Virus record (IMG/VR): IMGVR_UViG_3300028549_001560
DNA length: 64,000 bases
Direction: 5' to 3' (one strand)
DNA from: a virus
Shown here: positions 3,001 through 22,430 of the stretch, piece after piece
How positions within the stretch are numbered: position 1 is the stretch's first letter
Layout: the number at the start of each line of letters is the position of its first letter
Notes under the pieces: generated by a model
The model's input: the letters and a program-made list of their open reading frames with translations, nothing else
Database searches by the model: none
What the model was told of the DNA's origin: nothing
Position numbers and translations under genes: made by a program

Positions 3001-4363
3001 TAAAAACAAAATGCCTCATCCCTTTAGTGGTTGTAATATTGCTTGTGTCTTGATTATACGGAATATAGTTAACCATATCAACCATATCCTTAGCCCTACC
3101 CATTCTTATTTTAGCTTCAAATATAGTTCTCCAAGCTTGTAGGTTCTTGTTGTCGCTAGCTGTTTGAACTTCTAGTTCACTAAAGAATAGATCTATAGAA
3201 GTATCACCATAAGACAATGTTACTGTATATGCACCTCCTTTATTGAAGAATGCAGTTACTTTAGACCCAGGGAATTCATTTAATATGTTATTAACATATT
3301 CACTGTTTGCTATAGATGATATAATTGAAGTCGGATCATACATTGAAAATCCAGGTAAATGTAAACTAGCTGCGTCGTTACTGTTATCAAATAGTTTTTT
3401 ATCAGAATCGCTAAGAACACTAAATGGAACAGAGAAATCTAGATCATGCATATTCTCGTCTGCTGTTCTATATAGAGTCCCTTGCTCTCTAAGAGATAAT
3501 GACCCTGTAAGTACAGCACCAAGACTATTTAATTTATCTACTATAGTCTTTGCATCAGGGTTGTTGTCTAGAGTTCTATTGAAATTAGTTAATTGAGCAT
3601 CGCTACTTATTTCTGTGCTATATTTAGAAAATACACCATTAAGCATGTCAGAAGCAATTTCAGAAACTAATGAGTTGACTTCATCGCTAGACATTGCTCC
3701 AACTCTAAGAGCTTGTTTTATCTTTCTAGCAAGTTTAAGTAGGTTGTACTTAACAGTCTTTATTAATTTAGTACTTCCAGATATAGACCAATACTCAGCA
3801 ACTCTGGTAGACTCCTGTTTTTCTGAGTTCTCATAGTTAACTATAGCCTCTGCAAGTAGATCAACAACTATTAGTTCTTTTATCTTATAGTCATTTAGAT
3901 TTGTAGACCTTTCTTTATACTTATTATATAGTTCTTGATAATTATCTATATTTTGTATGTTTGATAGCAAGTCTGTTTTTATCTTGTTCTTAGACCCAAG
4001 CATCATTAATCCAACATATGCAGCTTCTTTAGACAAGCCGGATAGATTATTAGAGCTTTCTGTAAGCATTATAAGTTTGCCTATTAAATCTGTAGCAGAT
4101 ATAGCATCGTAGCCAGTGATTGATTTAAGTTCTTCAAATGACTGTACGTCAAATCCAAGCTTAGATAGAAATGCATTTATCTTTTCTTTCTTGCTTGATC
4201 CCTCACTTATCTTATTTATCCCCAACTGCTCTAGTGTTGGCCATTCGTCCGTCTTATTGTTATCCATCCAGATACTCATCTTTGCAGATAGAATAGCAGG
4301 ATGAAGCCCTGACTCATTTGCCAAGGCTTGAAACTGCGGTAATTTAATATTAATACAATTCAT
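1..4363 (-). CDS. Very large virion-associated protein, N-terminal >=1,454 codons only (gene runs off the left window edge)
   Basis: Manual minus-strand translation from ATG 4363-4361 (MNCINIKLPQFQALANESGLHP...) is open in every codon down to position 2. The start lies 10 nt after the TAA of the 4,630-aa gene. It is absent from the ORF track because there is no in-window stop. Function is inferred only from position. Confidence 0.85.
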   Translation of the reverse strand, partial: MNCINIKLPQFQALANESGLHPAILSAKMSIWMDNNKTDEWPTLEQLGINKISEGSSKKEKINAFLSKLGFDVQSFEELKSITGYDAISATDLIGKLIMLTESSNNLSGLSKEAAYVGLMMLGSKNKIKTDLLSNIQNIDNYQELYNKYKERSTNLNDYKIKELIVVDLLAEAIVNYENSEKQESTRVAEYWSISGSTKLIKTVKYNLLKLARKIKQALRVGAMSSDEVNSLVSEIASDMLNGVFSKYSTEISSDAQLTNFNRTLDNNPDAKTIVDKLNSLGAVLTGSLSLREQGTLYRTADENMHDLDFSVPFSVLSDSDKKLFDNSNDAASLHLPGFSMYDPTSIISSIANSEYVNNILNEFPGSKVTAFFNKGGAYTVTLSYGDTSIDLFFSELEVQTASDNKNLQAWRTIFEAKIRMGRAKDMVDMVNYIPYNQDTSNITTTKGMRHFVFKTINMPSSNFTTQGRDLHLNTDPSNKQNSIIFTEKEQDNNIGILESDQFEDTLGSDTSFTTDSKSFYEQLIELGKKVAQKGSKEGLRAVYAIANALSKRTGINFNVISSSEAKKINQRYQDGDSGMYDRSTNTAYIIAEYFDETTPIHEIFSHPFLELIRNSKEFSGIFEKLYKEAMSNMSKSELDGIVAEGLNSNDTREEIVAHYIDSVIKSALNNKNTINDDSVIVKFFKAFAAFIKNQFGITSDINNIKIGATGKQLASWILYGTDEVNLITGEQADNLLNSLNNSKERTPLSTSIILNTSHQAKLSVSEVIPIIKEAISKPNGVDIEESRFMMVRHKHVADSSLGMKTFSDIKSEMANAFRTQLSSIKKREGVDVRYTQKIQKLVATIEESEDIEALIKFIEFAGGTSTQEGEVDKMEKTMIALDERRLRNEKLDSNIIDLAKADFIDMYRNMLKSVESIFAPGSKFFDGVDSNTAGIIRNNIDRIAGKLNNMDIIYDRIFMYQYQNVLLETAAARGDESLKHTLGKNTFEIDHDFSFLFTVLGAPKYSNISQLSVLSTRIKEAKARANSEFTRNSNILKLIALAKSYKKSHLLYTSYNDAYEVDDNGVATGYLVSPLKYGVFLFKFESFKRDLQKKYKLNTVESRPETEKLRSEYDREIHDYLVEHSERMFKPAYYEARLKLSELTRNALDEANDAIHSILSKYMSQDGTPDTINMTRRDSRLLQSAKMNKRNLSSKVNANGELKTGVDLIIAEEISEMNESLFSNGSIKRKPSYDKFNKVLNRYLSEAKTDEDRARVEEWRKKNTAKTIKPEFYELLESIPKRMPMEQFQDEYEELYKTKMEILKRFRDPDTGDIVEEMIDDVLKKIINDIDKRLDEIKAKTEKTDGLKFSDVARVEVSERFEIEKKKIRDAGNKLYAKWLSENPTADIFEKQKKIDELSQGFNQWMEINTREIKGSDGNYFTSPASFWTKIVPINESFIEDGPNSTWSEIDKT

Positions 4364-4373
4364 TTATATTGTT

Positions 4374-7300
4374 TTAATTACATTGTGTTAGTTTATCCCA
4401 CATCTCCTGTGGCATCTTATTGAAATCTTCTGTAGTAAGCGATACTGCTCCAATTGATTTGAAGTGATCATTTATTCTATCCATATCAGCTTGAGATCTA
4501 GTAGATTGCTGCAATTTTATTAATTCATCTCTTACCTCATATCCTGCTGGTAATATAACATTATCTGGTATATAATTACCTCCATTAATGTCGTTAATCT
4601 CCTTTATTTGAGACTTAATTTCCTCGACAGTATATCCAGCTAAAGAACTACCAAGCTTTGTCATATAGAATTTAAGCTCAGGATGGTTATTTGCAAATTC
4701 AAAGAAGTCTGCTAATCCTTCGCCTATCTCATCTAGGGTAGATGATTTCTCAACACTCCAGTCTTTCTTGGTTATAATAGCATATGATTTACCCTGCAAT
4801 CCTTCAGCTTGTCCTTGTTTAGCTCCAAACTTATTTTTAGCCATTAAGGCAGCTCCTTTTCCATGAACGCCTTCCGAATTACTACCGAACACAAAAACCT
4901 CATTCGGCCCCAACTCTGTAATATTTTCAGGAGTGTATTCACGATCTTTCGAAGTATTTTCACTACTTTCATTAACTATAGTGTAAAGAGAATCAATATA
5001 GGCCTGTAGAGGCACTTTAGAGCTCGTCTGTACACCTAGCACATCACTGGTGGATGTTACATATATCTGAGGAATAGGGTCGCTTAAAACGTCTCTAAAT
5101 ACATCTAAAAGCATTTCTTTATATATAATCTTATACGCATCTGATAGATCATTGAAGTCAAAATCCAAGTCAATGGTATCACCTCCGGCTTCTATAATAG
5201 AAAATGCATCAGATATTATATCGCTCATCGCTAATCTATTTTGATCTGTTTGCTCTGATCCGTCATAACCGAATGGTGTATGCATATCTATTTCATCTCT
5301 ACTTACGAATGTAGAGTTGTATGGTACACCTCTCTCTTTTGATAGTTGTTTTAAGATGTCTACCTCGGTAGGAGCTCCATTTATAACTGCATCGTAAATC
5401 AGTGATCCACCTCTGAATTCCGCTTTCTTTGGAAGATTATTTGATTCAATCATTGATTTGTTTACACCAAACTCAAGTATTGGTCTGCCATCCTGCATTG
5501 CTCCTTTTCTGTCTATTGGCATATATACAGGAGCATGTATCGGTTTCTTATCTTTTTTCGAATATTTAATCACAGTCAATCCTATTAACTCGTAAAGTAC
5601 AGTACTCGTAGGCTTAGATTTAGAATCTACAGATAGATTTATATATTTGCTGTATACTGGATATTTATTGTGATTTCTAACATAACTTATGGCCACATTA
5701 TCTATAAGGACGGCTGGATAATTAGATCTACTACCATCTGATATCGTATAATTCTTATGTATCCTGCTTAATTTACCACCAGTTAAACTATATGGATCCT
5801 CATATGTTAATGAAACTTGAGGAACAATATCCTTGTCGTACCATTTATTTTTAGATATTTCACTCATAGAGCTTTCTATATCAAATATAAAATTAGGGTC
5901 CATTATCCTATCTATATCTTCGTAGATTTTGTTATTCTCTCTATCATCTTCGGATAGCTTAACGAAATTCTTCCCTGATTTATCTCCAGATGTTATATAT
6001 TGATATAATATTAAGTCTTCAGCAAACTTCTTAAGAATCTCATTATCGCTTTCAAGTAACTCTGACCAGTATGCTTTAAATTTCGCATTTATACTTTGAT
6101 CTGAATTTGAGATTGCTTTAATATTGATGAAGTCTGCAGAGTTTGAGTCGAAGCCGATAGCCTGAGATAATGAATTAATTATATAGTTATCCTTTAATCT
6201 ATTTAGTTTTGGATCGAGGTCTATCATTTCTTTTATCCTCATAAACCTTTTAGCCATAGAGTTTCTACCAAAGAACATGCCAGGTATATCTATATTGTGA
6301 GTTTTTGCATATTCGTTATAGAAGTCACTCCTTAGAAATGAATCTATAGCATTTAAATGTTTTTTAACAACATTCTCCGATGGCATCTTCTTTATCCCAT
6401 TATTAAAGAAATATCCCTTTAGATCATTCAGTAGCAATCCTGGTCTTGTTCTAAATAATTCACCGTTAGATATCGTCCTGACAGCACTCAACATAAGGTC
6501 CAGCTTAGTACCTAAGAACGAGTTTTCGACTATGCTTGTTGGGTCCGTAAAGAACTTTCCTTGCCCACTCGTTGCAAATTCCATTATCTTGTTCTTAAAT
6601 AATTCTATAGACGTAAATGATATACCGTATTTTTTTGTATCGATCTGAGCTAGCCCAACGTTAGACGCTAGTGCGTCTGCAAATGGACTTATCTGAGAAT
6701 ACATTATAAGCATCTTTAGTTGACCTATTGCGTATTTGAGCTCATCTTTTTCATTCTTCAATTCCATAAGATTTTTTGAACTCATAAATGATTTTCCGAA
6801 AATATTATTGAACGACTCGTAAGCAGACTCATCAAATAATGCCGGATTAGCGAAATTACTAAGTTTTAATATCTCATCTAGAACGGCCTTATTTCCATTA
6901 GCAAGTCTTCTGGCATTTTTAATGTAATCACTAATCATGCCTTTTATTACTTGACTAGATAACTTATTTAAGTCAGTTCCATATGGATTTCCGTATTTAG
7001 TAGATATAACATTTATTCTGTTAGCCATCTCTTTTAATGCTGGCTGAGAAAGATAGTAAAACGTATCTTTACCTATCCCAGATCTAAGCAAAAAGAATAA
7101 TGTGTTATATGTTGTAGGATTTACATTTAATCTGATTATATAAGTGTCTTTAGCAACGTCTACGTGTGCACTAATCATCGCATTCAACCAATCAAGAATT
7201 CTAATGCCATCCTTTCCGATAACGCCGTCACATCCAGACAAATTAAGATACTTCAATATAGGATATTTAGACGAATTTAACTTGAGCCCATACATTTGTG

Positions 7301-10300
7301 CAAGCACATGATGTGCGTTATTCAATGCAGAAGGCCCAACGCCTGATTTACCGGTAGTGTATTCGTACTTTTTCTGAGATTGATATGATGGTGATATATA
7401 ATTCAAAGGTCTTGACTTCTTCTTATCTGCCCTAACACCCTTCTCTATATCAGCGAGGACTACACCCGTAAGGTAATCTGTGGCTGTATCTAGTGGTAGT
7501 TTTGCTTCGGCGAATGATATATCATCAGCTAGCACTGCCATATACATATCAAGTAGTCTGTTCTTTATTGCAGCATCGCTGTTTTTCGGATCAGAATACC
7601 CTAAGCTATCATCAAATCTGGCTACTCTCTTGTCTTTTTCGTTTCTGTATATTTCAGCAGTCTCTGGGTCATATCTAATTCCTTTTTTATACTCTGTAGA
7701 TAGAAATTCAGATAACGCTGCGGACTTCTTGGCAAATTTAGATTCATTCGTAATAACAACACCTTTATTTGATCCAATTGGAGTGTCTGCCCATTTTTTA
7801 TAAGCCGTTCTCAGTTCATCTCTCTCCTCGGTAGTGATAGGTATTCTATTGCCTGTATTGTAATCCTCATAACTGTATCTAGCTAAAAATAATTTATCAA
7901 TATCGAAGTCAGATCCAGTCATTTTAGTAAATTCAGATGGAAGTATTATAGTATCGCCATCCGTGGTAGGGAGGACGTCAACTATAAGTAAAACAGCAGA
8001 AGATGATGGACCTTGATTTGGTACACGATATCCTATCGCAGATGGGGCTGAGTTAGGGCCTATTATATTCCTATCCATAAGCCACTTAACTCTATCTTCG
8101 TGTGCAATGATATTTGATGGTATTATATCCATAAATAAGTTTATAGACACAATAGCCTCTATAGCATTATTATCTCTGAAAAAATTAAGTCTCTTTCCAT
8201 TATTAAGCATCCTTAATCCGCCTGTCTTCTCATTAAATTCATCTTCTGATATTTTATTTGAATTTAGGGCGTCTGTATTGACGGAGGATAATCCAAATGG
8301 AGTTCTTTGTATGAACATACCACCTGGAGTATTTATATCTATAATTTCAGATCCTATGAGCGACATTAACTTGCTTTCAACCCATGCATTATCTATGACA
8401 TATTCAAGTCTAAAAGGTCTTCCGTCGGCAGCCTCTTTCAATTTAGATACTAGGTCCTCTGGCATTCCGGATTCTATGGCAGAATCGTATAGGTACTTAT
8501 ATACAGATGCTTTATCACCGAGTCTCTTTAATAATCTATCAAAACCTCTTTTTGCTAGTTCTTTGTTTGCTGAATCATATGCCGATATCAATTGATCTCC
8601 AGTCATCTCGTTCCCATTTGAGAATTTGGCTTTCGAATATATTCTTGATTTATCTATATTCGACATCGCCATCTTGTTGATCTGAGTTGCCATCCTCATT
8701 TCTCCTGGCTCATGTGGATCAGTAACTAATTGCTTTCTTAGAAATTTAAACTCCTGTGTAGTAACTTTTAGCTCATCTCTTTTTGCATATCCAGTAATAT
8801 TTCCGTCTTTATCCTTCTTCGCATATGTAGCACCCCTTCTATTACCATCCTTGATGGCAGTCTTGAATATAAACATATCAATCGGCTTAACACCGTACAT
8901 TTTTTCTGTCTCAGTAGGGTTCATCATAGAATACATATCAGACAAGCCGGCAGTTGAGTGGTGTTTAAATACAGGGAATATAGCCATCTTATTTATGACC
9001 AATATGTCTAAACCATTTTCAACAGAGTTACCAACGTAAATCATTTTTAACGGCTGTAGCTGTAATTTATTGGCTAATTCAGCCTTTACAGGGTCGCTCA
9101 TCCAGCCCATATCTTCAGATTCAAGAATAGCTAACGCTTCATCCATCCATGGTTCCCATTCGCCTAATCGTTCTTTTGTCTCTCTATAATGCATTGGAGA
9201 GCAATATGCAGTGGCATCAGTCTCATCAACATTTCCATATCCAGACATTTGATCAATAGAAGCCTCTCTAACGCTGTTTACAGCCTCTTTAACAGATTTA
9301 TTGTAATCTTCTGGCAGTATACCGCTGTTTGACATTAAAGCCTCAAGAAGACCTGAATCTGGCGATTCTCCAGCATCTGTCAACCTTCTATTTGCGTTAG
9401 ATGCTATAGCCTTGATGGTAAGCTCCTTTAGGTGTTGACTAACTATATTTGAATCATTTAGCTCAGTAACGCTATATTTCTCTTTATTGTGCAATCTGTG
9501 TCCAACCGGGAATATCGTTCTTAGGTTATTACCAGTAGATAGCATTGTTGAATGTCGCTTGATTTTCGCTTCGTCGTTTTTGTGGAATGCAGGATCTTTT
9601 GCAAATATTTTCTCATATTCTATAGTTGACGCCATCGTATTTACCATATTGGCAGCCATCATATTTATCAATGCAATAGGATTAGATCCGTTATTCTTAT
9701 CTATATTGTAGTATTTCAAGTGTTCTGAAATCTCTTTTTCATCCAGTGCAAGATTTGCTATTTGCATAGCATCCCTAAATCTATCGCCAGTTTTGACTGG
9801 GTAAGAAATAGCACCAATACTTTCAGCGTACTCTATTTCGTCCAAAAGTCTATCTTGTAATGTTGCAGATATTTTAGCTGGCAATAGCGATTTCGCTTCG
9901 TCGGAGTTGTTAAAGTAATTTCTACTTAATCGATCCATCATTTCATCAACTTTCGACACATCTCCTGTTTTGTATGCTTCCGATAACATGTCATTTAGCG
10001 TAGTCATACCCTTCCCGTCACTAGAATTGACTTCAAAGTTAAAGTGTCTAAAGAATAATCCATTCCCTGGTTTAATAGAGCCATCCTTTCCTTCGAAATA
10101 ATGATATGTTGGCATCATACTTGATTGAGTATCCATATATTCAGCCTCGCTTTTCGCAAGAGATAGCGATTTATATAGATTCCAAGCTTCCTTCATTGCT
10201 TCAAATTCAGCTGCGGCATACTCTGAGAATTGTGATACAACATAACTACTAAATGTCACCTTTCTATTAGTCGTGTCTACGAATAACTTATTTACCGCTC

Positions 10301-13300
10301 CATTAAACCATTTTAATCCAGACAATAAGTAATAAGTTTTCTTATCGGCCATAGTTGGTAGTACCATGAAGTCTCTTAAAGTGGCTTGCATCTTAAATAT
10401 ATAATCCTCTAGCACGCTCATTCCAAAGTAGTCTCTTCCCTTATCAGCTGTTCCTTCTTGATATAGTTTAACGAAGGTTTTTAGTTTTACTTCGACCTTT
10501 CTTCCCTTATCTATAGCTTCTTGCATCTGAGATAATATCATAGAACCAACAGGTCTATTTCCATCGCCTCTACCTCTATTAAATTTAACACTTTTTATCA
10601 AGCTTCTATATGTTGAGTCCTCCCTCAATCTATTAACAATTGTTGTCATGTAATTTGGAAGAGATATAGCATACATTTTTCCTCCATCCGCGGCCGAAAC
10701 CATAACTTCTTCAGGCGATGGATGTGTTCTAGCATATTCTCTAGCTAATTTCTCAGCGAATGGCTCTCCAGCATAAATAGCAGATACATTTTTCTCAACT
10801 TCTTTCCCTATAATAAAAGATTTCATATATCTACCATTATTCTTTATTAATTTTGGTAATATATTTCTAAATAATATAGATGGATTTGACTTATTTACAG
10901 AGTATCCGCTCGAAATATAGTCTACAAAGTTCTTTCTGATGTTTAAGTCATTATTTCCTATCAAAAACATTCCGTCGAAAGTAGCTTGGTCTACATCTAT
11001 TCCAACCATTCCTAGTATCTCAACGAACTTAGAGGCAATCGCTGTATATGTCATTGATTTTGATTCGACTATTAAATTTTCATATGCATCTATTGCTGAT
11101 TGGATATGCTTAGGATCAAACAATCGATCACCATTTTCATTATAATCATATACATTGTCATTAGCCGATAGATTATTACCCCAGATCTTTGGATGTAATT
11201 TCTCAGCCTCTTTTTCTGATATATCCCTAATATCCCATCTCATTCCATCTTCAGTATCTCTATATGATGCTGTTATGTATTCATGTCTCTGAGTATTAAC
11301 AGACGTAAAGAATTTTGTATTAAATTCAACTGACTGGTTCGCCAATCTTCTTCCTAATATTCTAAAGAATGGATCTGTTTTTGCTAAATTTGCAATCCTA
11401 TTCATCATTGAGTCTATATCATTAGCAGAGCCAAGTCTTGATATCATAACATTCCATGCTGTATCAAATGGGATAAATGAATTAAAGCCAGTTAATTCGC
11501 TTTTAATTGACTTCATTCTACCATCGACAACCTTCGCTAATGGCATTGTTGCAATGAACGCCTTAACCTCTGGTAACACTCTATCTTTATGGTTGAATTT
11601 ATTCGACTCGGTATACTCGGATAAATCAGCTCTGGTTATCTCCTGATCATTTTCAATAGCATTTGGATCTATATCGTCAGATATATTATCTTCATACCCA
11701 ATAAAGTCTATATATTTCTTTATCTGAGGTTTGAATTTATCTTCGAAATGCTCGAGGATCTCAGATAATACCTCATGTCTTGAATTATCACCATCTGCAA
11801 GTGCCTTATTGGCAAGGATTTCTATATTTGCATATAGATCGTTATAGGCTTTAGTTTCATTAATTTTATTTGATTTATTTACGACTCCACCTAATTGGAA
11901 TAGCATATACGTCATACCATTTATAGATTCATAGAACTCATCTAGGTTCATCATCTTCAAGTCACTTGCAACATGTCTATTGACAGATGATCCATAGATT
12001 GCCTTAAATTCTCTAAGACTCTCACTGTTGATAGAATCATATCTAAACATACCTCTATTGATATCATTAAATAGTCTATCTATATCAGAATTGCTAAATC
12101 CAACTATCTTTCTTATGAAGTTATATATCTTTCTGAATGCAATCTGTAGTCTGGTAAAGTTTTTAACAGTCCCATTCTTCATAACATATTCTCTAAATTT
12201 TTCAGCCAAGAACTCTTCAACTTGTTCATTAGATAAGCCCTTTAATTGAGGCCATCTATTTCTGGCTTCTTCATATATCTTAACCCTAGTCTCTCTTGGA
12301 AGTAGAAGTAATGATACTTTGTGATACGCCTCATGGAACGATGTTCCTATTTCAGCTGCCATCGATAGTACTATGCCTGAATCTCTCATGACTCCCATCG
12401 CCAACTTATCTCTACCAACCTTTATTAGGTCCTTTACTACCTCTACATCTCCTGGTTGAATATTCAACTTATCTCTAAGCCATTCAAGTTCTTGAGCCAT
12501 GTTTATTAGCTCATAATCGCTATTTTCCTGCTCTCTTAGCGGCCCAAAGTCCTCATCGAAATCCATAGACTGATCAACGACCTTAAAATCACTCCCAGGC
12601 TTATTCTCAGGCGTTTTAACGGACTTATCTGTACTATCTGGTGTATTTGTATCGCTTTTAGCTTGCGTGTTACCTTGAGCCTCTAGAGCAGCTATTTCAG
12701 CATCATACTCTGCATTGATCTCATCAAGTAATCTACGGGCTATTCTTTTCCCTAAATCAAATTGAAGCCTTTTTCTCTCTCTTGATGGCTTCATGTTATT
12801 TATTCTTCCAGCTTCGGAAGCTTCTTCTTCTGTGGCCTTAAATTTATATTGACTAGTACTTGAAGTTCCATCAGCATTTTCTATTATAGCCTCTCCGCTT
12901 GCTCCTAGATTTATAACGGCACTCGTCTTTGTTCCGGCGGTTTCATCCAGCTCATTATCTAAAACGCCTTTTATTTGCTTTACCTTCGGAGAGTACTTTA
13001 GTGTATCCTGTCTTCTTGATTCTATTTCCGCCTTTGCTTTAGCTATACGTATTCTTTCTTTTACTGTATCTAGATCTGGTAATTCGCTATTTTTTTGCTC
13101 ATTCGACTGTAGATCGACCAACTCACCACCTGGCTTGGCTGCTATTACAGCAGCTTGGGCAGGGGTTCCATCTGGCTTCTCTATGTATTCATGAACACTT
13201 TCAAGATTAAGATATGCTGGAGCAAATATTGTTGGAAATGTATCTGTTCTTATTAGCCCCTTTTTAATCAAGAAGGCGAACCATGTAAGATTTAAGTCGG

Positions 13301-16300
13301 ATCTTTCTATTGTAAATGCACCGAAATCAATTGCCACATCATTGCCATTATTCATTAATGCATCGAATTGATATTGGTTTAATCCAGGGAATACATCTGA
13401 AACGGTTTTATCTGGAGCTCCATCCTGAGTTCCATCAACAAGAGATAATTTATCGACCTTAAATGTGATGTTTTTTGCTATATGAGCCCTTATCTCGGCT
13501 TTGTCTTTAGCAGATAACGCATTCAATGTATATTGCTTGCCAGCAAGAGATAGTACATGTCCACTTACCTTTATATGTTTTGATACTAGGAATTCATCTT
13601 CTGTAGATGACTTTCCAGAGTCATGCACATAACTGGTATTAAAGTTTATCATCGTTTCCAAGAAGCTACTAATAGGAATACTTATAGCGACACCTCCAAC
13701 TAGTGCTTTTGTATCTCCACTAGGTATTATTCTTCCTGTGGTCTTGTCTATCGTTATATTGTCAGCGAATTTCTCTGAAAATAACATACCGCAAACTATA
13801 TCAACTATAGATTGTGTTCCGGCTGCAGCAGACTCTTTATCTGATTGTCCAAATTCAAGTGGATTTAATTTTATTGGAACTCTATCTCCACTATATGGAT
13901 TTGTAACAAATACATGTATTCCGCCTTGAGAATTACTACCACTCACAGGACCTCTAGACATGACAGATCCTCGTATCGTCTGCAGAATAGAAAACCCATC
14001 TCTGTTAGATCTATATGAGAAATCCATCGTCTCAACATTTATCTTTTCAAAATCGATATTCCCATTTGCGTCTCTAGGAAATTCAAATCCATCAACGTCT
14101 CCAAGTTTTCTGCTTCCCTGCTTTTTGGTTATATTATGCGAAGCCTTGATGTTTGGAATTATCTTTGTCTTTGTTCCCATATTTGAGTCGATCCTCATTG
14201 CATCTATAAATAGTTGAATTAGATTATCTCTATTACTCTTAAGTAGATCTATCTCAGCATCTGTAGGCCTAACAGAGTTTTCCGGAGATACCATTTTAGC
14301 TGGATTTCTCATGTTAACGATAAATGATTCATCGCCTTTAGTAACCCTCACTCCAACCATCAATGAATCCCACTTGTTGTTAAATCTATTATCTCCTGGA
14401 TGTTTTTGCGCATAATCTCTATCCGCTTCTATAGCATCAAGCTGATCTAGTGTTAGCTCATTAACAGTCTCACCCATATAGTATACAACAACCTCTGATT
14501 TGTATTTGCTGTTTTTAGATGACAGTGTTTTTACCCACTCTATTACAGATTCATACGCTGGATGATTCTTGAAATATGTTAATACCTTCCCAAAGTGAAC
14601 AAATTTATTGCCAGGAGTTACACTAGCCAAAACAACAGACCTAGCTTCTTGTAGGTGTACCTCAGATTCTTTAGCTTCTGTAACTGATTCAACAGATATA
14701 GATGTACCTATAACATCTTCAACTACTTCTGGTTCAACCTCTTTTGATGCTGTTTCTATTGCTAGTTCTATCTCTAATCTATCATCTGATTCCTCTTTTG
14801 TATCGGTCTTCATTCCGAACGCCCAATCAAGTGCGATCTCAGACTGGGTATCCTCCTCCTCGTTTTCTATAGCTGTGACAATTACGTCTTCGTCACCAAG
14901 CACTAACGATGGTGCATTATCATCAGATTGAGGCTCTGGGACAATCTCATCATACTCGCCTATAGGGTCTTCTGAGACTGTTACTGCTGGACTCTCGGAC
15001 TTTTGAGCTTGAGCAGTAGCTGCTGGTTGTTGAGCCTGAACCACTGGTGTTGTAACCACCTCAGTTGCTGGCAAATTTTCTTTGGCTGTTACTTCTGTTG
15101 TCTCTATTGGGGCTAATGTATTAGTTTTACTATCACTACCAGGCATCGGTGAGTTCATAGTGTTGTCTTCAGCTTCTCCAGACTCTCTATATCTAGATAC
15201 CTTATCAAATACATAATCTTGGTAACTGTCTTTATTTGTGTGCCTTGACTTATCTAATATATTATCATAAACAGTCTTGTCGTATATAGCACCATATCTA
15301 GCGGAATTTGATACAAGAAAGTTGTCGAATACTTCAGATGGAATTCCTGTATGCATTTCATTTAATTCAGATTCGATAGATGAAAGCTCTAACTCTGGAA
15401 ATAGATCAGACATATATTCCATCATATTTCGAACTCTTAAGTTAGCCTCAATTGACGAACTCTTCATATATACATTAGAAAGCTCTCTATCGCCATTGAA
15501 TTGATCTTTGTCTGATTTTGGATCTATCATCCTGGTAGCACCATCTTGCGATTTCTCTGTCTTTCCGTTGTACGCTTTAATATCAGCCTCTGATTTGTTT
15601 GATATAAATCTAGACGCGGCTGCATCGGCCATAGCTCTGGCTAGCCTTAGTTTCTCGGAGTCAGCAAGCGGGGCTCCATTCTTGCTTTCATGTGCTTCGG
15701 ATATTCTATTAATCATAGATGTTATAGCCGGTCCATAATCATCGACCTTGTATGCATCTATAGTCTTCTTTCTTCTGCCAACTTCAGACATTGCTTTGTC
15801 ATACTCAAGTTTATGCGCCATTGCCAGAGCGGTGGCATCGGCCTTAATGCTGTTCGCGCCAGATTTAGACCATCCAAGCCCGTCAGTTATTGCATTAATT
15901 GAATTACTATTATATATAGCTCTAGCAGTTCCAGCAAAGTCAAGCTCCTCTTTTAATATGGCTTTTTTCTCTGCATCTGGTTCAGATTCATATCTATTCT
16001 TTAATGCACTATACAATCTATCTCCATCATGACCAGACACACCAGTCGTGTACATTTTTGACTTATTCATAGACCCATCTACATCAAACCTAGAGTTTAC
16101 TAATCCATCTACGAATTCATCAGCTCTCTTTTGTGCATATTGTCCTTTTACTCCAGGAATTCCATGCAGGGTTGAGGTTACGACAGTCTGACCAAAGCCG
16201 CTTATGGCTCCGATTTTTGCGTTTGTTTTTAGCTCCGATCTGTCTACATATAATTCAGCACCACTATTCATACCAAGCAAATAGGACACTCCGGTTAAAT

Positions 16301-18266
16301 TAGCTGCAAATCCGTCTATATATGATTCTATAGTGCTGTTTCCATCAGCTAAGGTTCCATTTACGTATCTTTTTCCTGTTATATATTGTTGAGCCTCTTC
16401 AACGCCTTCAAATGGTGCTTGCCACAATCCTTTTCCTATGTACGATGTAGCCATCTTTGCTGGTATATTTTTCATAGAACCCTCTGCTACCTTTTTGAGT
16501 ACTCCAGAAGTAGCTCTGATTGTCTTTCCAAGCATAGACTTCATCTCCATTGACACTCCTCTACTCAACATATTTATGGCTCCCTTCCTGAATATACCAG
16601 AGGGACTAATAGCCACCGCATCAAACATCATATCTGGCACTGAGTTAGACATTTGCTGCCTCTTGTATTCATCTATACCATTAGTGGATGATTTTACTGC
16701 CTTAGATAGATTTTCGTCAGATGTAGGTATCATACCGGAAGCTAACCCTCTTTTAAGTGACTCTATTTGATGTTCAGATAATTGCCCGTTTTTTGATATT
16801 TCATCGAGTGCGCTTTTCTTTACACTATATCCAGCACCACTACTCTTGTCAATCAGATTCAATAACTCTATATCGTCTAATTTATCTATATCGATATTTG
16901 ATATACCTTTGTAATCTTTTTTGAACTTCTCGAGGGTATATTCTGCTAGCTCCATATTTGTCTCTCCCTCTCTTTGGGCTACATTTGACAATACGTTACT
17001 TGCAATTGAAATCCCTTCAGCTATCATTGGCATACCAAGCTTTGATCTAGTAAGGGCACTAACGCCTACGCCAGCGAGCAATGTAACGGTCGAAGGAATA
17101 TAGCTAGCCATAGATAATCCAACTCCACTGATTATCGATTCAGAACTTTCCGGATCCTTTAGCTTTCTTTTATATACTTCTGATATATTCCCACTTCGTA
17201 TATCTATAAGATCCTGTCTTTCGTCTATTTCTTTTTTAACATCTTTATATAAGCCAAATACTTGATGTGTTATTTCAGTTGTCATCGCAGATGTATTGAT
17301 ACTGCTTCGCTCGCCCCTCTGAACCTTCCTTGATTCGTCGGCTAACCCCTTAAATTCCTTTAAGTTCATTTGTTTGCCAAGGCTATTTATCTTGTCATAT
17401 AGACGCGCTTCATCAAATCCCTCATTCTTGTCTTTTTCAGCACCAAAAAGCTCTGTAACGTCAGCAGTTGCATCTAGCAGACCCTTTACGATAGACCAGC
17501 CCTTAGTGGCTTGACTGACCTTAAAATTATCTTTTACAGACAAGTATGACGACAATAAACCAGAATACCTCATGTATGTAGGTTTAAGCTCATCTGGAAT
17601 CTTGTTCAATCCTGGAAGTCCAGATCTTGTTTTATATTCGGCGATAGGTGTTTTTATGCCAAACATCAAGCTAGCCAATACTCCGGCAGATGCAATATCT
17701 GGATCAACGTACGACGATGAAGTTCTCTCATCTCCATATATTACTGGCTTAAATCCAAATTCATCAACACCACCCCATTCGTTTTTATGTAGGTCTAATA
17801 GATGATTATGAAGTGGAGTTACATACTCCCGCTCGTTAGTTTTCCCATTTACATCTACTTCGACATTCCTAGTTTCGTAAAGAAAGTCTAAAAGTTCTGT
17901 AAATTTAGGATCTTTCATTGCTGGCGTAAGCAACTTGCCAACAGCTGTAGCTTTATTGAATTGATCACCAACAAGGCCTTGTAGTTGTAGCTGAACACTC
18001 CTATCTAGGTTGTTCATAAACTCATATACAGTTCCTGAGGCGAAATTTAAATCCTCAGAATCTTCAGAAACAGGACTACCCGTACTAGATTTCTCAGGTA
18101 CAGGTAGTTTACGTCCTCTAACATTTGTATTGTTGAGAGCCTTCTCTATTAAGGCTTCGTTGTCAAATTTAGAAACATTAGAGGACAAATTTTTACTAAC
18201 CTCTTCAAAATATTTCTGATCACTACCAGACAATGCGATAGCTCCTCCTTTTTGTTTTTTACTCAT
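4374..18266 (-). CDS. Giant multidomain virion protein (4,630 aa) containing a crAss-type virion RNA polymerase module, a zincin-like HExxH motif and a C-terminal alpha/beta module
   Basis: Single uninterrupted ORF. GSDFDIDKLFLARY (aa 3453-3457 = DxDxD metal loop of two-barrel RNAPs, as in the crAss-like virion RNAP family). FHEAYHKV at aa 1978-1982. Acidic/Pro-Thr-rich linker around aa 1030-1190. FVFGSNSEGVHGKGAA module near the C-terminus. Confidence 0.8.
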   Translation of the reverse strand: MSKKQKGGAIALSGSDQKYFEEVSKNLSSNVSKFDNEALIEKALNNTNVRGRKLPVPEKSSTGSPVSEDSEDLNFASGTVYEFMNNLDRSVQLQLQGLVGDQFNKATAVGKLLTPAMKDPKFTELLDFLYETRNVEVDVNGKTNEREYVTPLHNHLLDLHKNEWGGVDEFGFKPVIYGDERTSSSYVDPDIASAGVLASLMFGIKTPIAEYKTRSGLPGLNKIPDELKPTYMRYSGLLSSYLSVKDNFKVSQATKGWSIVKGLLDATADVTELFGAEKDKNEGFDEARLYDKINSLGKQMNLKEFKGLADESRKVQRGERSSINTSAMTTEITHQVFGLYKDVKKEIDERQDLIDIRSGNISEVYKRKLKDPESSESIISGVGLSMASYIPSTVTLLAGVGVSALTRSKLGMPMIAEGISIASNVLSNVAQREGETNMELAEYTLEKFKKDYKGISNIDIDKLDDIELLNLIDKSSGAGYSVKKSALDEISKNGQLSEHQIESLKRGLASGMIPTSDENLSKAVKSSTNGIDEYKRQQMSNSVPDMMFDAVAISPSGIFRKGAINMLSRGVSMEMKSMLGKTIRATSGVLKKVAEGSMKNIPAKMATSYIGKGLWQAPFEGVEEAQQYITGKRYVNGTLADGNSTIESYIDGFAANLTGVSYLLGMNSGAELYVDRSELKTNAKIGAISGFGQTVVTSTLHGIPGVKGQYAQKRADEFVDGLVNSRFDVDGSMNKSKMYTTGVSGHDGDRLYSALKNRYESEPDAEKKAILKEELDFAGTARAIYNSNSINAITDGLGWSKSGANSIKADATALAMAHKLEYDKAMSEVGRRKKTIDAYKVDDYGPAITSMINRISEAHESKNGAPLADSEKLRLARAMADAAASRFISNKSEADIKAYNGKTEKSQDGATRMIDPKSDKDQFNGDRELSNVYMKSSSIEANLRVRNMMEYMSDLFPELELSSIESELNEMHTGIPSEVFDNFLVSNSARYGAIYDKTVYDNILDKSRHTNKDSYQDYVFDKVSRYRESGEAEDNTMNSPMPGSDSKTNTLAPIETTEVTAKENLPATEVVTTPVVQAQQPAATAQAQKSESPAVTVSEDPIGEYDEIVPEPQSDDNAPSLVLGDEDVIVTAIENEEEDTQSEIALDWAFGMKTDTKEESDDRLEIELAIETASKEVEPEVVEDVIGTSISVESVTEAKESEVHLQEARSVVLASVTPGNKFVHFGKVLTYFKNHPAYESVIEWVKTLSSKNSKYKSEVVVYYMGETVNELTLDQLDAIEADRDYAQKHPGDNRFNNKWDSLMVGVRVTKGDESFIVNMRNPAKMVSPENSVRPTDAEIDLLKSNRDNLIQLFIDAMRIDSNMGTKTKIIPNIKASHNITKKQGSRKLGDVDGFEFPRDANGNIDFEKINVETMDFSYRSNRDGFSILQTIRGSVMSRGPVSGSNSQGGIHVFVTNPYSGDRVPIKLNPLEFGQSDKESAAAGTQSIVDIVCGMLFSEKFADNITIDKTTGRIIPSGDTKALVGGVAISIPISSFLETMINFNTSYVHDSGKSSTEDEFLVSKHIKVSGHVLSLAGKQYTLNALSAKDKAEIRAHIAKNITFKVDKLSLVDGTQDGAPDKTVSDVFPGLNQYQFDALMNNGNDVAIDFGAFTIERSDLNLTWFAFLIKKGLIRTDTFPTIFAPAYLNLESVHEYIEKPDGTPAQAAVIAAKPGGELVDLQSNEQKNSELPDLDTVKERIRIAKAKAEIESRRQDTLKYSPKVKQIKGVLDNELDETAGTKTSAVINLGASGEAIIENADGTSSTSQYKFKATEEEASEAGRINNMKPSRERKRLQFDLGKRIARRLLDEINAEYDAEIAALEAQGNTQAKSDTNTPDSTDKSVKTPENKPGSDFKVVDQSMDFDEDFGPLREQENSDYELINMAQELEWLRDKLNIQPGDVEVVKDLIKVGRDKLAMGVMRDSGIVLSMAAEIGTSFHEAYHKVSLLLLPRETRVKIYEEARNRWPQLKGLSNEQVEEFLAEKFREYVMKNGTVKNFTRLQIAFRKIYNFIRKIVGFSNSDIDRLFNDINRGMFRYDSINSESLREFKAIYGSSVNRHVASDLKMMNLDEFYESINGMTYMLFQLGGVVNKSNKINETKAYNDLYANIEILANKALADGDNSRHEVLSEILEHFEDKFKPQIKKYIDFIGYEDNISDDIDPNAIENDQEITRADLSEYTESNKFNHKDRVLPEVKAFIATMPLAKVVDGRMKSIKSELTGFNSFIPFDTAWNVMISRLGSANDIDSMMNRIANLAKTDPFFRILGRRLANQSVEFNTKFFTSVNTQRHEYITASYRDTEDGMRWDIRDISEKEAEKLHPKIWGNNLSANDNVYDYNENGDRLFDPKHIQSAIDAYENLIVESKSMTYTAIASKFVEILGMVGIDVDQATFDGMFLIGNNDLNIRKNFVDYISSGYSVNKSNPSILFRNILPKLIKNNGRYMKSFIIGKEVEKNVSAIYAGEPFAEKLAREYARTHPSPEEVMVSAADGGKMYAISLPNYMTTIVNRLREDSTYRSLIKSVKFNRGRGDGNRPVGSMILSQMQEAIDKGRKVEVKLKTFVKLYQEGTADKGRDYFGMSVLEDYIFKMQATLRDFMVLPTMADKKTYYLLSGLKWFNGAVNKLFVDTTNRKVTFSSYVVSQFSEYAAAEFEAMKEAWNLYKSLSLAKSEAEYMDTQSSMMPTYHYFEGKDGSIKPGNGLFFRHFNFEVNSSDGKGMTTLNDMLSEAYKTGDVSKVDEMMDRLSRNYFNNSDEAKSLLPAKISATLQDRLLDEIEYAESIGAISYPVKTGDRFRDAMQIANLALDEKEISEHLKYYNIDKNNGSNPIALINMMAANMVNTMASTIEYEKIFAKDPAFHKNDEAKIKRHSTMLSTGNNLRTIFPVGHRLHNKEKYSVTELNDSNIVSQHLKELTIKAIASNANRRLTDAGESPDSGLLEALMSNSGILPEDYNKSVKEAVNSVREASIDQMSGYGNVDETDATAYCSPMHYRETKERLGEWEPWMDEALAILESEDMGWMSDPVKAELANKLQLQPLKMIYVGNSVENGLDILVINKMAIFPVFKHHSTAGLSDMYSMMNPTETEKMYGVKPIDMFIFKTAIKDGNRRGATYAKKDKDGNITGYAKRDELKVTTQEFKFLRKQLVTDPHEPGEMRMATQINKMAMSNIDKSRIYSKAKFSNGNEMTGDQLISAYDSANKELAKRGFDRLLKRLGDKASVYKYLYDSAIESGMPEDLVSKLKEAADGRPFRLEYVIDNAWVESKLMSLIGSEIIDINTPGGMFIQRTPFGLSSVNTDALNSNKISEDEFNEKTGGLRMLNNGKRLNFFRDNNAIEAIVSINLFMDIIPSNIIAHEDRVKWLMDRNIIGPNSAPSAIGYRVPNQGPSSSAVLLIVDVLPTTDGDTIILPSEFTKMTGSDFDIDKLFLARYSYEDYNTGNRIPITTEERDELRTAYKKWADTPIGSNKGVVITNESKFAKKSAALSEFLSTEYKKGIRYDPETAEIYRNEKDKRVARFDDSLGYSDPKNSDAAIKNRLLDMYMAVLADDISFAEAKLPLDTATDYLTGVVLADIEKGVRADKKKSRPLNYISPSYQSQKKYEYTTGKSGVGPSALNNAHHVLAQMYGLKLNSSKYPILKYLNLSGCDGVIGKDGIRILDWLNAMISAHVDVAKDTYIIRLNVNPTTYNTLFFLLRSGIGKDTFYYLSQPALKEMANRINVISTKYGNPYGTDLNKLSSQVIKGMISDYIKNARRLANGNKAVLDEILKLSNFANPALFDESAYESFNNIFGKSFMSSKNLMELKNEKDELKYAIGQLKMLIMYSQISPFADALASNVGLAQIDTKKYGISFTSIELFKNKIMEFATSGQGKFFTDPTSIVENSFLGTKLDLMLSAVRTISNGELFRTRPGLLLNDLKGYFFNNGIKKMPSENVVKKHLNAIDSFLRSDFYNEYAKTHNIDIPGMFFGRNSMAKRFMRIKEMIDLDPKLNRLKDNYIINSLSQAIGFDSNSADFINIKAISNSDQSINAKFKAYWSELLESDNEILKKFAEDLILYQYITSGDKSGKNFVKLSEDDRENNKIYEDIDRIMDPNFIFDIESSMSEISKNKWYDKDIVPQVSLTYEDPYSLTGGKLSRIHKNYTISDGSRSNYPAVLIDNVAISYVRNHNKYPVYSKYINLSVDSKSKPTSTVLYELIGLTVIKYSKKDKKPIHAPVYMPIDRKGAMQDGRPILEFGVNKSMIESNNLPKKAEFRGGSLIYDAVINGAPTEVDILKQLSKERGVPYNSTFVSRDEIDMHTPFGYDGSEQTDQNRLAMSDIISDAFSIIEAGGDTIDLDFDFNDLSDAYKIIYKEMLLDVFRDVLSDPIPQIYVTSTSDVLGVQTSSKVPLQAYIDSLYTIVNESSENTSKDREYTPENITELGPNEVFVFGSNSEGVHGKGAALMAKNKFGAKQGQAEGLQGKSYAIITKKDWSVEKSSTLDEIGEGLADFFEFANNHPELKFYMTKLGSSLAGYTVEEIKSQIKEINDINGGNYIPDNVILPAGYEVRDELIKLQQSTRSQADMDRINDHFKSIGAVSLTTEDFNKMPQEMWDKLTQCN
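4497..4949 (-). other. C-terminal ~150-aa alpha/beta nucleotide-binding-like module of the giant protein (family not named)
   Basis: Ordered motifs VFVFGSNSEGVHGKGAAL, GLQGKSYAIITK and KLGSSLAGYT. The arrangement resembles macro/SLOG-type small-nucleotide-binding folds. Confidence 0.35.
7896..7910 (-). other. DFDID catalytic-loop motif of the RNA polymerase module
   Basis: Plus strand tttatcaatatcgaagtc reverse-complements to GAC TTC GAT ATT GAT AAA = DFDIDK. Confidence 0.75.
12321..12335 (-). other. HExxH (HEAYH) zinc-metallopeptidase-type motif inside the giant protein
   Basis: Plus strand gtgatacgcctcatg reverse-complements to CAT GAG GCG TAT CAC = HEAYH, in the context GTSFHEAYHKVSLLLLP. 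Confidence 0.5.
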
Positions 18267-18290: not shown

Positions 18291-20099
18291 TTATTTTTTT
18301 GTATAGAAAGACGTTCCCCTTGATTGAGAATTTGTTGATACAGTAGCCCCAGATGGTGTGAATACTCCAATCTCTCTTGTTTTGATCGGAATCCTAACAT
18401 ATGAAGATTCTGTCTTGCCGTCAAAGTTTATAGTTATATTGCTGCCACTTGAATCTTTCTGCTGTGCTTTTTCTAATGTTCCGCCTATCTTATTTAAGTA
18501 TGATTCCAACTTCTCGTCAGTGACAGCTCCAGATACGCCAAAAATATCTTTAGCTCTAGCTCTAAATTTATCAAGAGGTATTACTGCAAATCCATTCGGA
18601 ATAACACCGCTTCCTTGTATTGTGTATGAGTTCTTGTCTTCATACATCATAGATCCATTGAACTCATCTGAATTCATTATACTTTGTATTTTGGATGATG
18701 CAAAAGACGAATTAGTAGATCCAGTGCTTAGATCATATACTACCGGTTGGTTTGCTTTTGTAAGCCTTCTCATTGTCTTTTCTTCTCCAGACATCATAAC
18801 CTTTGACGTCTCTGGTTCAAATCCGGCAGCAAGTACTTCTGAGTGGTTCTGCCCTATAAGCGGTATAGTGTTTACTCTATTCCAATCAGCTACAGAGAAT
18901 CCATATGCATTTGATCCATCTTTATTTGCCTGTCTAACACCAGAAGACATTTGGCTATCAAAATTCTCCATCACAATATCTCTCATTCCTTCGAAGCCAA
19001 ATGCTCTTTCTTCAGCAGATTTTGATTTGTCATTAGCTATTTTCAAGTATGCGTTAAATGCGGCAGCTTCGTCTTTAGATAATGCTGAGCTTAGAACCTT
19101 CCTTGGTTTGTATGTTCCGTCTGGATATTTAACTATATTTCTGTCTAATACCTCGGCCACATATTTTGATCTAGATTGAGCCACGCCATTCATTTTATTA
19201 TTGACGTCGACAGCGAATACTTTAGCAGCATCCTCTCCAGCTGTAGTTTCCAGTGCTTTTGCAGCTCTATGAATTCTCATCTGAGATGCCTCCTTCATAG
19301 ATAATTCATATTCTGGAGTTAACTCGACCGACTCTATTCTTATTGCATCTAAATTAGCTCCCTTACCAAGATCCTTTATATAGCTAGCCTGATCGTATGT
19401 AGTTGTGCCATCTTTGTTTATAACCTTGTAGTTCTCAGATGCTCCAGTCTTTTTTGCAAGCATCCAGTGTAGTTTTGCGGCTGGAGACATTGCAACTTCC
19501 TGATACCCATTTTCTATTGCTGTGTTGATCTGATCGACAGATACCTCCTTTATCATTCTTTTTCCATCTGGAGTGAATCTAATCGTCGGATGTATTTGAT
19601 CTGTAGCCTGCTTAAACATATCTCCACCTGATTGAAATTCTGTGTTCTGCATGGTAAATGCTCCACTCTTAGAGGAGTCGTAATTAAACACTGCTTCATT
19701 TTCAACACCACCCCATCTGGTATCTGATTTGGCCATAAATTGCTTCATTGCTGACGCATTTTGAACCATATCGTTAACAGCTCTATCTGATTTTATTCTT
19801 CTTGTAGTTGCCTTTATTTGTGCTTGGAATGCTCTTGATTTGAGGTTATCTGGATCTGCAGCGGCTTGCTCGGCTAATTGCGTTATAGGCATTTTTACCT
19901 TCTTCTCCCAATTCATAGCATCAACCTGCGATGGAGTATTTAGATTAGATTCAGATATGAGTTTATCCATAAATTCATTCGCTTGATCTAGATCTTTTTC
20001 AGCCTTATCGGCCATTTTATATAGCTGCTCAAATTCTATAGGCACATATGTGTTTATGAATTTTGCCTGAGCAGGCGTATCGTATAAATTAACTGCCAT
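18291..20099 (-). CDS. Hypothetical virion protein (602 aa)
   Basis: Long ORF with TAATG stop/start overlap with the upstream gene. It lies between the tail genes and the giant RNAP gene. No motif recognised. Confidence 0.7.
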   Translation of the reverse strand: MAVNLYDTPAQAKFINTYVPIEFEQLYKMADKAEKDLDQANEFMDKLISESNLNTPSQVDAMNWEKKVKMPITQLAEQAAADPDNLKSRAFQAQIKATTRRIKSDRAVNDMVQNASAMKQFMAKSDTRWGGVENEAVFNYDSSKSGAFTMQNTEFQSGGDMFKQATDQIHPTIRFTPDGKRMIKEVSVDQINTAIENGYQEVAMSPAAKLHWMLAKKTGASENYKVINKDGTTTYDQASYIKDLGKGANLDAIRIESVELTPEYELSMKEASQMRIHRAAKALETTAGEDAAKVFAVDVNNKMNGVAQSRSKYVAEVLDRNIVKYPDGTYKPRKVLSSALSKDEAAAFNAYLKIANDKSKSAEERAFGFEGMRDIVMENFDSQMSSGVRQANKDGSNAYGFSVADWNRVNTIPLIGQNHSEVLAAGFEPETSKVMMSGEEKTMRRLTKANQPVVYDLSTGSTNSSFASSKIQSIMNSDEFNGSMMYEDKNSYTIQGSGVIPNGFAVIPLDKFRARAKDIFGVSGAVTDEKLESYLNKIGGTLEKAQQKDSSGSNITINFDGKTESSYVRIPIKTREIGVFTPSGATVSTNSQSRGTSFYTKK

Positions 20100-21947: not shown

Positions 21948-22430
21948 TTAAATCATTGATTGCCTGTATGTTGTATTTATATACGGTATATTTAATCTAT
22001 TTCCTATTGGCTCATATAAAGCCTCTACTGATAAGTATTTACCCATCAATCTACCTTTAAATCTGCCCTCTGTAGCCTCTCTTGGCACTGCGGCTCTATA
22101 TGTATCTTCTCTGTTGTCGATATCGGCTGATAACAATGGAAGTCCATTCATTGAGTTTGTTGAAAAATCTATCCTCTTGAAATTGACACCTTTATCCAAT
22201 CTAAGTGTATATGATATATTATCAAATGTTTTCGTTATACTATAGTTATCATTTACGATGAAATTAACTAAAGAATTGTCTTTATATACGTTGCTGTTGT
22301 GTAGCGATAACTTATTATCTTCATCGAATGAGTAGTATCGATCACCGAAACTCAAATACCATTTTGGCTTACTTGATGTAAATGACCAAAATGCTTGAGC
22401 TGCCTCTGAATAGTTTAATGTATTTAACAT
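21948..22430 (-). CDS. Hypothetical structural protein (160 aa)
   Basis: ORF tightly packed between two structural genes with 1-nt gaps. Confidence 0.6.
   Translation of the reverse strand: MLNTLNYSEAAQAFWSFTSSKPKWYLSFGDRYYSFDEDNKLSLHNSNVYKDNSLVNFIVNDNYSITKTFDNISYTLRLDKGVNFKRIDFSTNSMNGLPLLSADIDNREDTYRAAVPREATEGRFKGRLMGKYLSVEALYEPIGNRLNIPYINTTYRQSMI

Follow-up and report, generated by a model that had tools for sequence, protein, structure and literature searches.

The DNA analysed here is a stretch of 64,000 nt from a virus (IMG/VR record IMGVR_UViG_3300028549_001560), referred to as the window. Its minus strand carries at 4374..18266 a single open reading frame (ORF) of 13.9 kb, which starts with ATG, has no internal stop codon and encodes 4,630 aa (ORF listing and translation). 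All features of the protein given below lie on this strand. The ORF comprises a cargo region, a zincin-like module, a two-barrel RNA polymerase (RNAP) and a C-terminal cassette, as delimited with the ORF listing, a second contig and the Suoliviridae orthologues. By genomic context, it belongs to the late structural block and lies downstream of the muzzle gene. The ORF very probably encodes a virion RNAP protein of the Suoliviridae type (delta crAss-like), expressed late as a cargo protein. It is a divergent further example of a described feature, the giant virion RNAP of the Suoliviridae.

In DNA of 35% G+C, chance cannot account for a frame that stays open over 4,630 codons. A second, independent metagenomic contig (94,655 bp vs 94,769 bp) also encodes a protein of 4,630 aa, and 4,629 of the 4,630 residues are identical. 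With only one substitution between the two copies, a frameshift or a mis-assembly is very unlikely. Hence, the single uninterrupted 13.9-kb ORF described in a first-pass annotation of the window was confirmed, with the same product on the second contig. An assembly or sequencing artefact that merged two or three genes was rejected on the basis of this near-identical protein and is hardly credible: the source is a metagenomic assembly and gene callers fragment the orthologues of TAG-recoded relatives (P0001-P0012), but the product is the same from two contigs, the collinear layout is common to 13 full-length relatives and the junction itself is conserved, with aa 1951-2050 among the best conserved positions.

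Polymerase region and Suoliviridae orthologues

The two-barrel RNAP region spans aa 2109-4280 (5427..11942) and was recognized by homology to the virion RNAP gp66 of phage phi14:2 (PDB 6VR4). In a phmmer search of the whole protein against the PDB sequences, 6VR4 was the sole match (E 3.7e-35), and no match to N4 or T7 polymerases was found. A profile of nine Suoliviridae cores matched gp66 with E 1.3e-45 and 2.2e-89, and the hhalign probability was 100%. The crAss-type virion RNAP that had been proposed from the letters of the window is thus present within the ORF. Residues 108-1813 of gp66 correspond to aa 2109-3936, and the core conserved in the Suoliviridae reaches about aa 4280.

The DFDID catalytic metal-binding loop was found where the first-pass annotation had placed it, at aa 3453-3457 (7896..7910). 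It aligned to 1361-DFDID-1365 of gp66, with GSDFDIDK in both proteins, and belongs to one of the two blocks with the highest conservation. Two further landmarks of gp66, taken from bioRxiv 10.1101/2020.03.07.982082, were mapped with hmmalign: the bridge helix aligned to aa 3625-3655 (7302..7394), and the trigger loop aligned to aa 3690-3727 (7086..7199), a block in which conservation is the highest of the whole protein. From the homology to 6VR4, we infer two double-psi beta-barrels in one chain. The first-pass annotation had named the lack of a barrel around DFDID as a refutation, and this homology speaks strongly, though indirectly, against such a lack.

A collinear orthologue was present in all eight annotated Suoliviridae genomes inspected, with lengths of 4,328-4,946 aa. 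The giant coding sequences (CDSs) are those of cr118_1 (KNV30_gp14, 4,946 aa), cr50_1 (KNV26_gp059, 4,774 aa), cr1_1 (4,551 aa), cr60_1 (4,494 aa), cr4_1 (4,491 aa), cr10_1 (4,460 aa), cr6_1 (4,400 aa) and cr109_1 (KNV50_gp53, 4,328 aa). Further metagenomic relatives of 4,286-4,890 aa were found by an exhaustive HMMER search. Neither aa 1900-2560 nor aa 2900-3800 gave a match in word-indexed searches of proteins, and an alignment query of the protein collection gave 12 short fragments (P0001-P0012). No record was retrieved when the encoding contig was looked up by exact sequence.

Four of the eight Suoliviridae orthologues (cr109, cr60, cr6 and cr4) have 38-70 TAG codons in frame, which have been recoded and specify an amino acid. 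These recoded orthologues are present in public protein collections as short fragments only. The ORF of the window has no in-frame TAG, and ARAGORN found no tRNA gene within the 64-kb window.

The zincin-like module

The zincin-like module covers aa 1921-2045 (12132..12506) and was delimited by conservation, profile matches and AlphaFold2 (AF2) models. It lies N-terminal to the start of the gp66 homology, and the least conserved linker of the protein lies just upstream. The HExxH motif that had been reported at aa 1978 is HEAYH (aa 1978-1982, 12321-12335), the sole HExxH of the protein. It is followed by EEFLAEKFR (nt 12186-12227), which has an invariant ExxAE and the predicted third ligand E2018. 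In 16 sequences with a mutual identity of 28-42%, the residues G1974, H1978, E1979, H1982, E2018, A2021, F2024 and R2025 were invariant and E2022 nearly so. A chance occurrence of HExxH was rejected, as the motif is invariant in these 16 sequences.

The profile of the module matched Zmp1/PPEP-1 best in the PDB (E 0.2, 6 of the 10 listed sequences), if a designed repeat protein is left aside. The two families aligned motif for motif (HETAH with HEAFH, and EEFFAESF with EEaLAEeF), and the spacing and the flanking residues agreed. The other three PDB matches of the profile were unrelated proteins (E 0.3-2). The Pfam family ATLF (anthrax lethal factor family) was matched by one of nine members with E 0.001, below the cutoff. 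Moreover, the gp65-type HExxH modules of phi14:2, cr4 and cr1 aligned to the module (hhalign P 3.5e-4). The spacing and the flanking residues of the module also agree with EFFAEAF of anthrax lethal factor.

AF2, run with a shallow alignment, predicted a core of five strands and three helices, with HExxH on one helix and the Glu motif on another, a topology compatible with a zincin fold. The block-mean predicted local distance difference test (pLDDT) of the core was 54-91 in a trimmed model and 69-88 in a longer model. Foldseek gave no significant match in the PDB, and the zincin-type matches of the trimmed model were all below significance. The best match was a Mycobacterium tuberculosis regulator (E 0.2-0.3), which we take to be PrpR with its IrrE-like domain, and PprI (E 1.4) and SPRTN (E 6) were also listed. 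In BFVD, the orthologues were followed by weak matches (E 0.03-0.5) named IrrE-like, lethal factor, metallopeptidase and polyvalent protein. The Foldseek result of a 426-residue model was dominated by low-confidence helices and contained no significant zincin match.

The module is probably a minimal gluzincin of the type that Iyer et al. described for polyvalent proteins and for the N4 virion RNAP, as predicted from these patterns. It could alternatively be argued that the HExxH is no peptidase site and that a helical N-terminal domain of the polymerase is conserved for structural or other metal-dependent reasons. The lack of any significant match in Pfam, the PDB or Foldseek, the moderate confidence of the AF2 models and the occurrence of HExxH in non-protease enzymes too (N4 paper) would fit such a domain. 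However, H, E, H and the downstream E-x-x-A-E are invariant at a sequence identity of only 28-42%, and their spacing and flanks agree with Zmp1/PPEP-1. The named sub-threshold matches are mostly zincins (ATLF, PPEP-1, SPRTN, PrpR/IrrE-like, 'lethal factor', 'metallopeptidase'), and GenBank labels the counterpart in Carjivirus as a zincin protease. We therefore regard the non-peptidase explanation as unlikely and retain the predicted gluzincin.

The giant ORF is followed, after a gap of 10 nt, by a partner protein of the RNAP block (2..4363, minus strand), which comprises at least 1,454 aa and is cut off by the start of the window. This protein has cr118 gp15 (E 3e-41) and cr109 gp52 (E 5e-16) as homologues, and its position equals that of phi14:2 gp65 and crAss001 gp49. 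No HExxH was found in its visible 1,454 aa, nor in the orthologues of cr118, cr109, cr50, cr60 and cr6. The downstream orthologues of cr4 and cr1 retain the gp65-type HExxH (HEILHAATV...EFLAE), as in phi14:2 gp65. Hence, some Suoliviridae carry two zincin modules per block and most carry one.

Flanking regions and neighbouring genes

The N-terminal 1,900 aa contain two conserved regions. Region A (aa 195-900, 15567..17684) was delimited by an identity of 24-26% to the relatives P0014-P0017 and by profile matches. Its profile matched the N-termini of cr109 and cr118 (E 1.5e-49 and 2e-41), and its motif FEGVEEAQQYITGKRY recurs in P0016-P0019. Only seven matching proteins were found for aa 361-1000 among 1.84 billion representatives. 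Region B (aa 1210-1735, 13062..14639) was delimited in the multiple alignment. It is beta-rich and has the motif GGIHVFVTNPYSGDRVPIKLN. Its profile matched cr109 and cr118 (E 5e-9), and no match was found in the PDB or Pfam.

The hydrophobic N-terminal segment named in the first-pass annotation is real but moderate. It is the uncharged Gly/Ala/Ser-rich stretch SIISGVGLSMASYIPSTVTLLAGVGVSALT at aa 377-406 (17049..17138), the longest uncharged run of the protein (30 residues), with a Kyte-Doolittle 19-residue maximum of 1.39. Gly/Ala-rich stretches of a similar kind occur at the same place in P0014-P0019. The segment is hydrophobic, yet it is no clear transmembrane helix. It is possibly membrane-interacting.

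Regions A and B are separated by the acidic Pro/Thr-rich low-complexity linker at aa 1030-1205 (14652..15179), which had likewise been noted from composition. Its content is 25% D+E, 17% P+T and 4.5% K+R, with a net charge of -36, and comparable linkers occur in relatives. A variable charged linker follows region B (aa 1736-1920, 12507..13061) and is the least conserved part, with the most gaps in the nine-genome alignment. A helical motif (INAEYDAEIAALE / LLDEINAEYDAEIAALE) is located at aa 1846-1862 (nt 12681-12731), ~120 aa before the HExxH. Among the relatives, P0015 alone has a nearly exact copy of it, INAKYDAELAALE, at the same relative place.

No match was found for aa 1-1966 by tblastn against 50,697 phage records, and none for the N-terminal 1,900 aa in Pfam or PHROG. 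The N-terminal region evolves very fast, yet regions A and B are homologous across the Suoliviridae, as shown by the profiles. Two methods gave weak matches of the N-terminal region, including region B, to a common stretch of phi14:2 gp67, residues 1025-1230 (hhalign P 0.002 and 0.006; hmmsearch independent E-value 0.22). A tblastn search with gp67 found Cellulophaga phages only and no bridge to the Suoliviridae.

At the other end, the protein has a variable tail (aa 4281-4630, 4377..5426), recognized by its divergence from relatives. Beyond the core, from about aa 4280, the relatives compared (L001 15800-18654, L004, L006 and L002) were fully divergent. The extra C-terminal domain that had been suggested corresponds to an A1S_2505-family domain at aa 4457-4575 (nt 4542-4898), which matched A1S_2505_Nterm (NCBIfam NF049995; E 8.8e-33, 112.8 bits vs a cutoff of 45) and PHROG 2072 (E 6e-30). 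For the tail, no PDB relative was found by sequence and no Pfam match.

The tails of the relatives carry other contents. The cr50 tail has an A1S_2505-like domain and a region in which a GYAGTGKST motif of the helicase type was recognized by eye, the cr118 tail a superfamily 1 helicase (AAA_30, UvrD_C_2) and the cr10 tail a circularly permuted YpsA SLOG domain. The tails of cr109 and P0016 are similar to each other and have an HSGGA-GSD motif, and the cr109 CDS is annotated as DprA-like. Those of cr60, cr6 and cr4 are short and acidic. The end of the polymerase protein is thus a site where accessory enzymes are exchanged. From the position of the A1S_2505 tail and its company, a role in nucleotide processing or counter-defence, in the sense of PMC9503650, is a reasonable guess.

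The protein holds four Cys among its 4,630 residues, one of them penultimate (aa 4629, nt 4380-4382). A Cys among the last 1-13 residues was found in 13 of 13 full-length relatives (L001, L002, L004-L009 and P0015-P0019), usually after an acidic/hydrophobic patch and irrespective of the cassette. Examples of these C-termini are FSTDEMNHC and FSDEAMLNCKGK. A near-terminal Cys was also found in phi14:2 gp66 (..KQECK) and gp67 (..NTIC), in the Carjivirus 1,957-aa protein (..SFSCM) and in crAss002 gp32 (..SFVCS). The C-terminal Cys may be a packaging or anchoring signal.

The neighbours on the same strand encode the large terminase, the portal, the major capsid protein, tail proteins and the crassvirus muzzle protein (Pfam PF25731, E 1e-204). 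Two ORFs of 602 and 615 aa (18291..21946, minus strand) were located by gene order between the muzzle gene and the giant ORF. In crAss001, the muzzle gene is followed by the cargo proteins C1 and C2 and then by the RNAP-associated proteins (PMC10172136), and the order is the same here. By position, the two upstream ORFs would be the equivalents of C1 and C2. The portal was 54-58% identical to all Suoliviridae portals, with no closer match. The phage is accordingly Suoliviridae-like (delta group), without a close classified relative, and on sequence grounds it probably represents an unclassified genus or subfamily.

The large terminase ORF (51212-53758, minus strand, 848 aa) matched the terminase profile at aa 24-469 only and has a LAGLIDADG_3 homing-endonuclease domain at aa 686-755. 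It resembles the large terminases of the delta group for which an intein or endonuclease insertion was reported (PMC7886860). A 160-aa ORF (21948-22430, minus strand) directly follows the 1,787-aa muzzle gene (22432-27795, minus strand) in another frame. It matched the C-terminal end of PHROG 28748 (profile positions 1307-1499), and the muzzle protein matched the same PHROG up to position 1300. The pair could be a split gene, the result of a frameshift or a real two-gene arrangement. Both GC skew and AT skew switch sign near 60 kb of the window, presumably at the boundary between the structural and transcription block and the oppositely oriented replication block.

Proposed delivery, possible cleavage and comparison with known systems

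Packaging and injection of the virion RNAP and its transcription of early genes were shown for phi14:2 (bioRxiv 10.1101/2020.03.07.982082), and cargo storage and unfolding were proposed for crAss001 (PMC10172136). By analogy with phi14:2, crAss001 and N4, a few copies of the protein would be stored in the capsid. They would pass the portal and the tail partly unfolded and ahead of the DNA, and the hydrophobic N-terminal part would probably engage the envelope. The RNAP would then refold and transcribe the early genes. The zincin at the junction would either cut the chain at the boundary between cargo and RNAP or activate an autoinhibited RNAP, and the C-terminal A1S_2505 domain would be an accessory enzyme delivered with the polymerase.

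Cleavage of the chain at the junction is conceivable, and we lean slightly towards doubting it. It is favoured by the modules being separate polypeptides in other families and by the zincin being at the junction. Several points weigh against the proposed delivery and processing. The zincin assignment is below every curated threshold (Pfam, PDB and Foldseek). Virion packaging, ejection and activity are transferred by homology from phi14:2 and crAss001, and the equivalence of aa 1-1900 to gp67 is drawn from gene order and weak profile matches. There is no readable cleavage site in the sequence, and, as the N4 virion RNAP illustrates, a giant virion RNAP that bears an HExxH need not be cut (PMC5512222).

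The protein might never be cleaved and, like N4 gp50, work as a single ejection protein of several domains, with an N-terminal part for envelope passage, the polymerase in the centre and a C-terminal part for encapsidation. The HExxH would then act on peptidoglycan, on host proteins or on RNAP autoinhibition, or it would be a structural metal site. The N4 virion RNAP (about 3,500 aa), which has a conserved HExxH domain, is described as a single virion polypeptide with the same division of labour, and Drobysheva et al. propose peptidoglycan digestion or RNAP activation for the crAss zincin. Moreover, the extreme C-terminus with its Cys is kept whatever the cassette, which would fit a packaging signal on an uncut chain. 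However, the modules of other crAss families are separate polypeptides with gene boundaries near the zincin, so that they can work apart, and the zincin here is exactly at the junction and adjoins a poorly conserved linker. We consider an uncut chain close to an even chance. The identification as a giant Suoliviridae virion RNAP is retained.

A bolder extension sees the protein as a modular delivery platform. Once the protein is ejected, the conserved zincin at the junction would free or activate the polymerase. The exchangeable C-terminal cassette (A1S_2505 here; SLOG/DprA-like, cpYpsA or a RecD-like helicase in relatives) would arrive in the cell as part of the first protein injected and would disarm defences that rely on nucleotide signalling or DNA targeting, ahead of all phage gene expression. 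The invariant Cys peptide would be the packaging or anchoring signal. Taken as a whole, this extension is speculative and improbable. If the cassettes were indeed counter-defence enzymes delivered before transcription, the most abundant phages of the human gut would, hypothetically, possess a new class of anti-defence factors that are injected.

The first-pass annotation had interpreted the ORF as a fusion of the RNAP with functions that are separate genes elsewhere, and had suggested comparing gene boundaries in related Crassvirales. The comparison showed that the break points differ by family and that the modules are separate genes outside the Suoliviridae. In phi14:2, the RNAP block consists of g067 (1,797 aa), the catalytic g066 (2,180 aa) and g065 (1,421 aa, HExxH at 245). 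In crAss001, it consists of gp50 (2,412 aa, DFDVD) and gp49 (1,349 aa), with gp47 apart, and in crAss002 of gp32 (2,020 aa, HExxH at 1814) and gp33 (4,245 aa, DFDID at 1503). Carjivirus (MW067000), of the p-crAssphage type, has a 1,957-aa "RNAP associated protein fused to zincin protease" (HExxH at 1743) and a 4,091-aa "RNAP catalytic subunit fused to unknown RNAP subunit". In a targeted search, the Suoliviridae zincin profile matched aa 1689-1758 of the 1,957-aa protein (independent E-value 9e-4). Accordingly, the window protein corresponds to the upstream gene of Carjivirus plus the catalytic half of its downstream gene plus a tail, and the downstream ORF of the window is the other half.

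As the modules are separate genes in other Crassvirales families, the window protein is a fusion. This part of the interpretation stood, with separate genes in phi14:2, crAss001 and Carjivirus, but its novelty did not: giant ORFs are the rule in the Suoliviridae and were already published. Giant crAss ORFs of "up to 15 kb" were described by Guerin et al., and a 2023 review names RNAP genes that encode as many as about 6,000 aa as a hallmark. Drobysheva et al. (bioRxiv 10.1101/2020.03.07.982082) reported that some phages encode the RNAP in fusion with its neighbours, as a polyprotein described as "likely cleaved". Hence, the self-processing polyprotein suggested for the window restates a published hypothesis. 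The main message is that a textbook crAss-like feature was confirmed in a divergent unclassified lineage. Modest additions are the map of fusion points, the junction zincin with a lethal-factor-like third-ligand motif, the exchangeable tail cassette and a cysteine conserved at the C-terminus.

The closest systems are the giant ORFs of the Suoliviridae. They share the variable N-terminal region, the HExxH ~1,430-1,540 aa before DFDxD (nine genomes), the RNAP core and the variable tail. They are also preceded by two genes of 539-673 aa and followed by a gene of 1,380-2,000 aa. They differ in sequence, with an identity of 26-32% in the core and near noise across the N-terminal 1,900 aa, and they carry another tail cassette.

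The proteins of phi14:2 share the alignable catalytic core with DFDID, bridge helix and trigger loop, and the order of cargo protein, RNAP and associated protein. In contrast to the window, these are three separate genes, the zincin is in gp65 downstream of the RNAP and not at the N-terminal junction, and gp66 has no C-terminal enzyme domain.

N4 gp50 and the polyvalent proteins (Iyer, Burroughs and Aravind 2017) are likewise giant injected virion proteins, in which a polymerase is joined to an HExxH zincin-like module and to accessory domains. They share the proposed logic of jump-starting transcription and delivering effectors. As in the polyvalent proteins (PMC5512222), several distinct domains, including a zincin-like one, were found in one polypeptide encoded among virion genes. 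Unlike the window protein, N4 gp50 has a T7-like, single-barrel-free polymerase unrelated to the two-barrel core, and its HExxH domain is C-terminal to the polymerase. Judged by sequence, the core of the window protein is not T7-like, and the resemblance to N4-like virion RNAPs is functional only.

The Carjivirus pair has the same module order as the window protein. Its zincin precedes the C-terminus of the upstream protein by ~215 aa and DFDVD by ~1,670 aa (here 1,475 aa). The difference is in the cut: in Carjivirus, the proteins are split after the zincin and the catalytic part is fused to the downstream partner, whereas in the window the chain is fused across the zincin and the partner is separate. 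The comparison thus maps how the same modules are cut into genes differently in four Crassvirales lineages, and it puts the probable zincin exactly at one of these break points.

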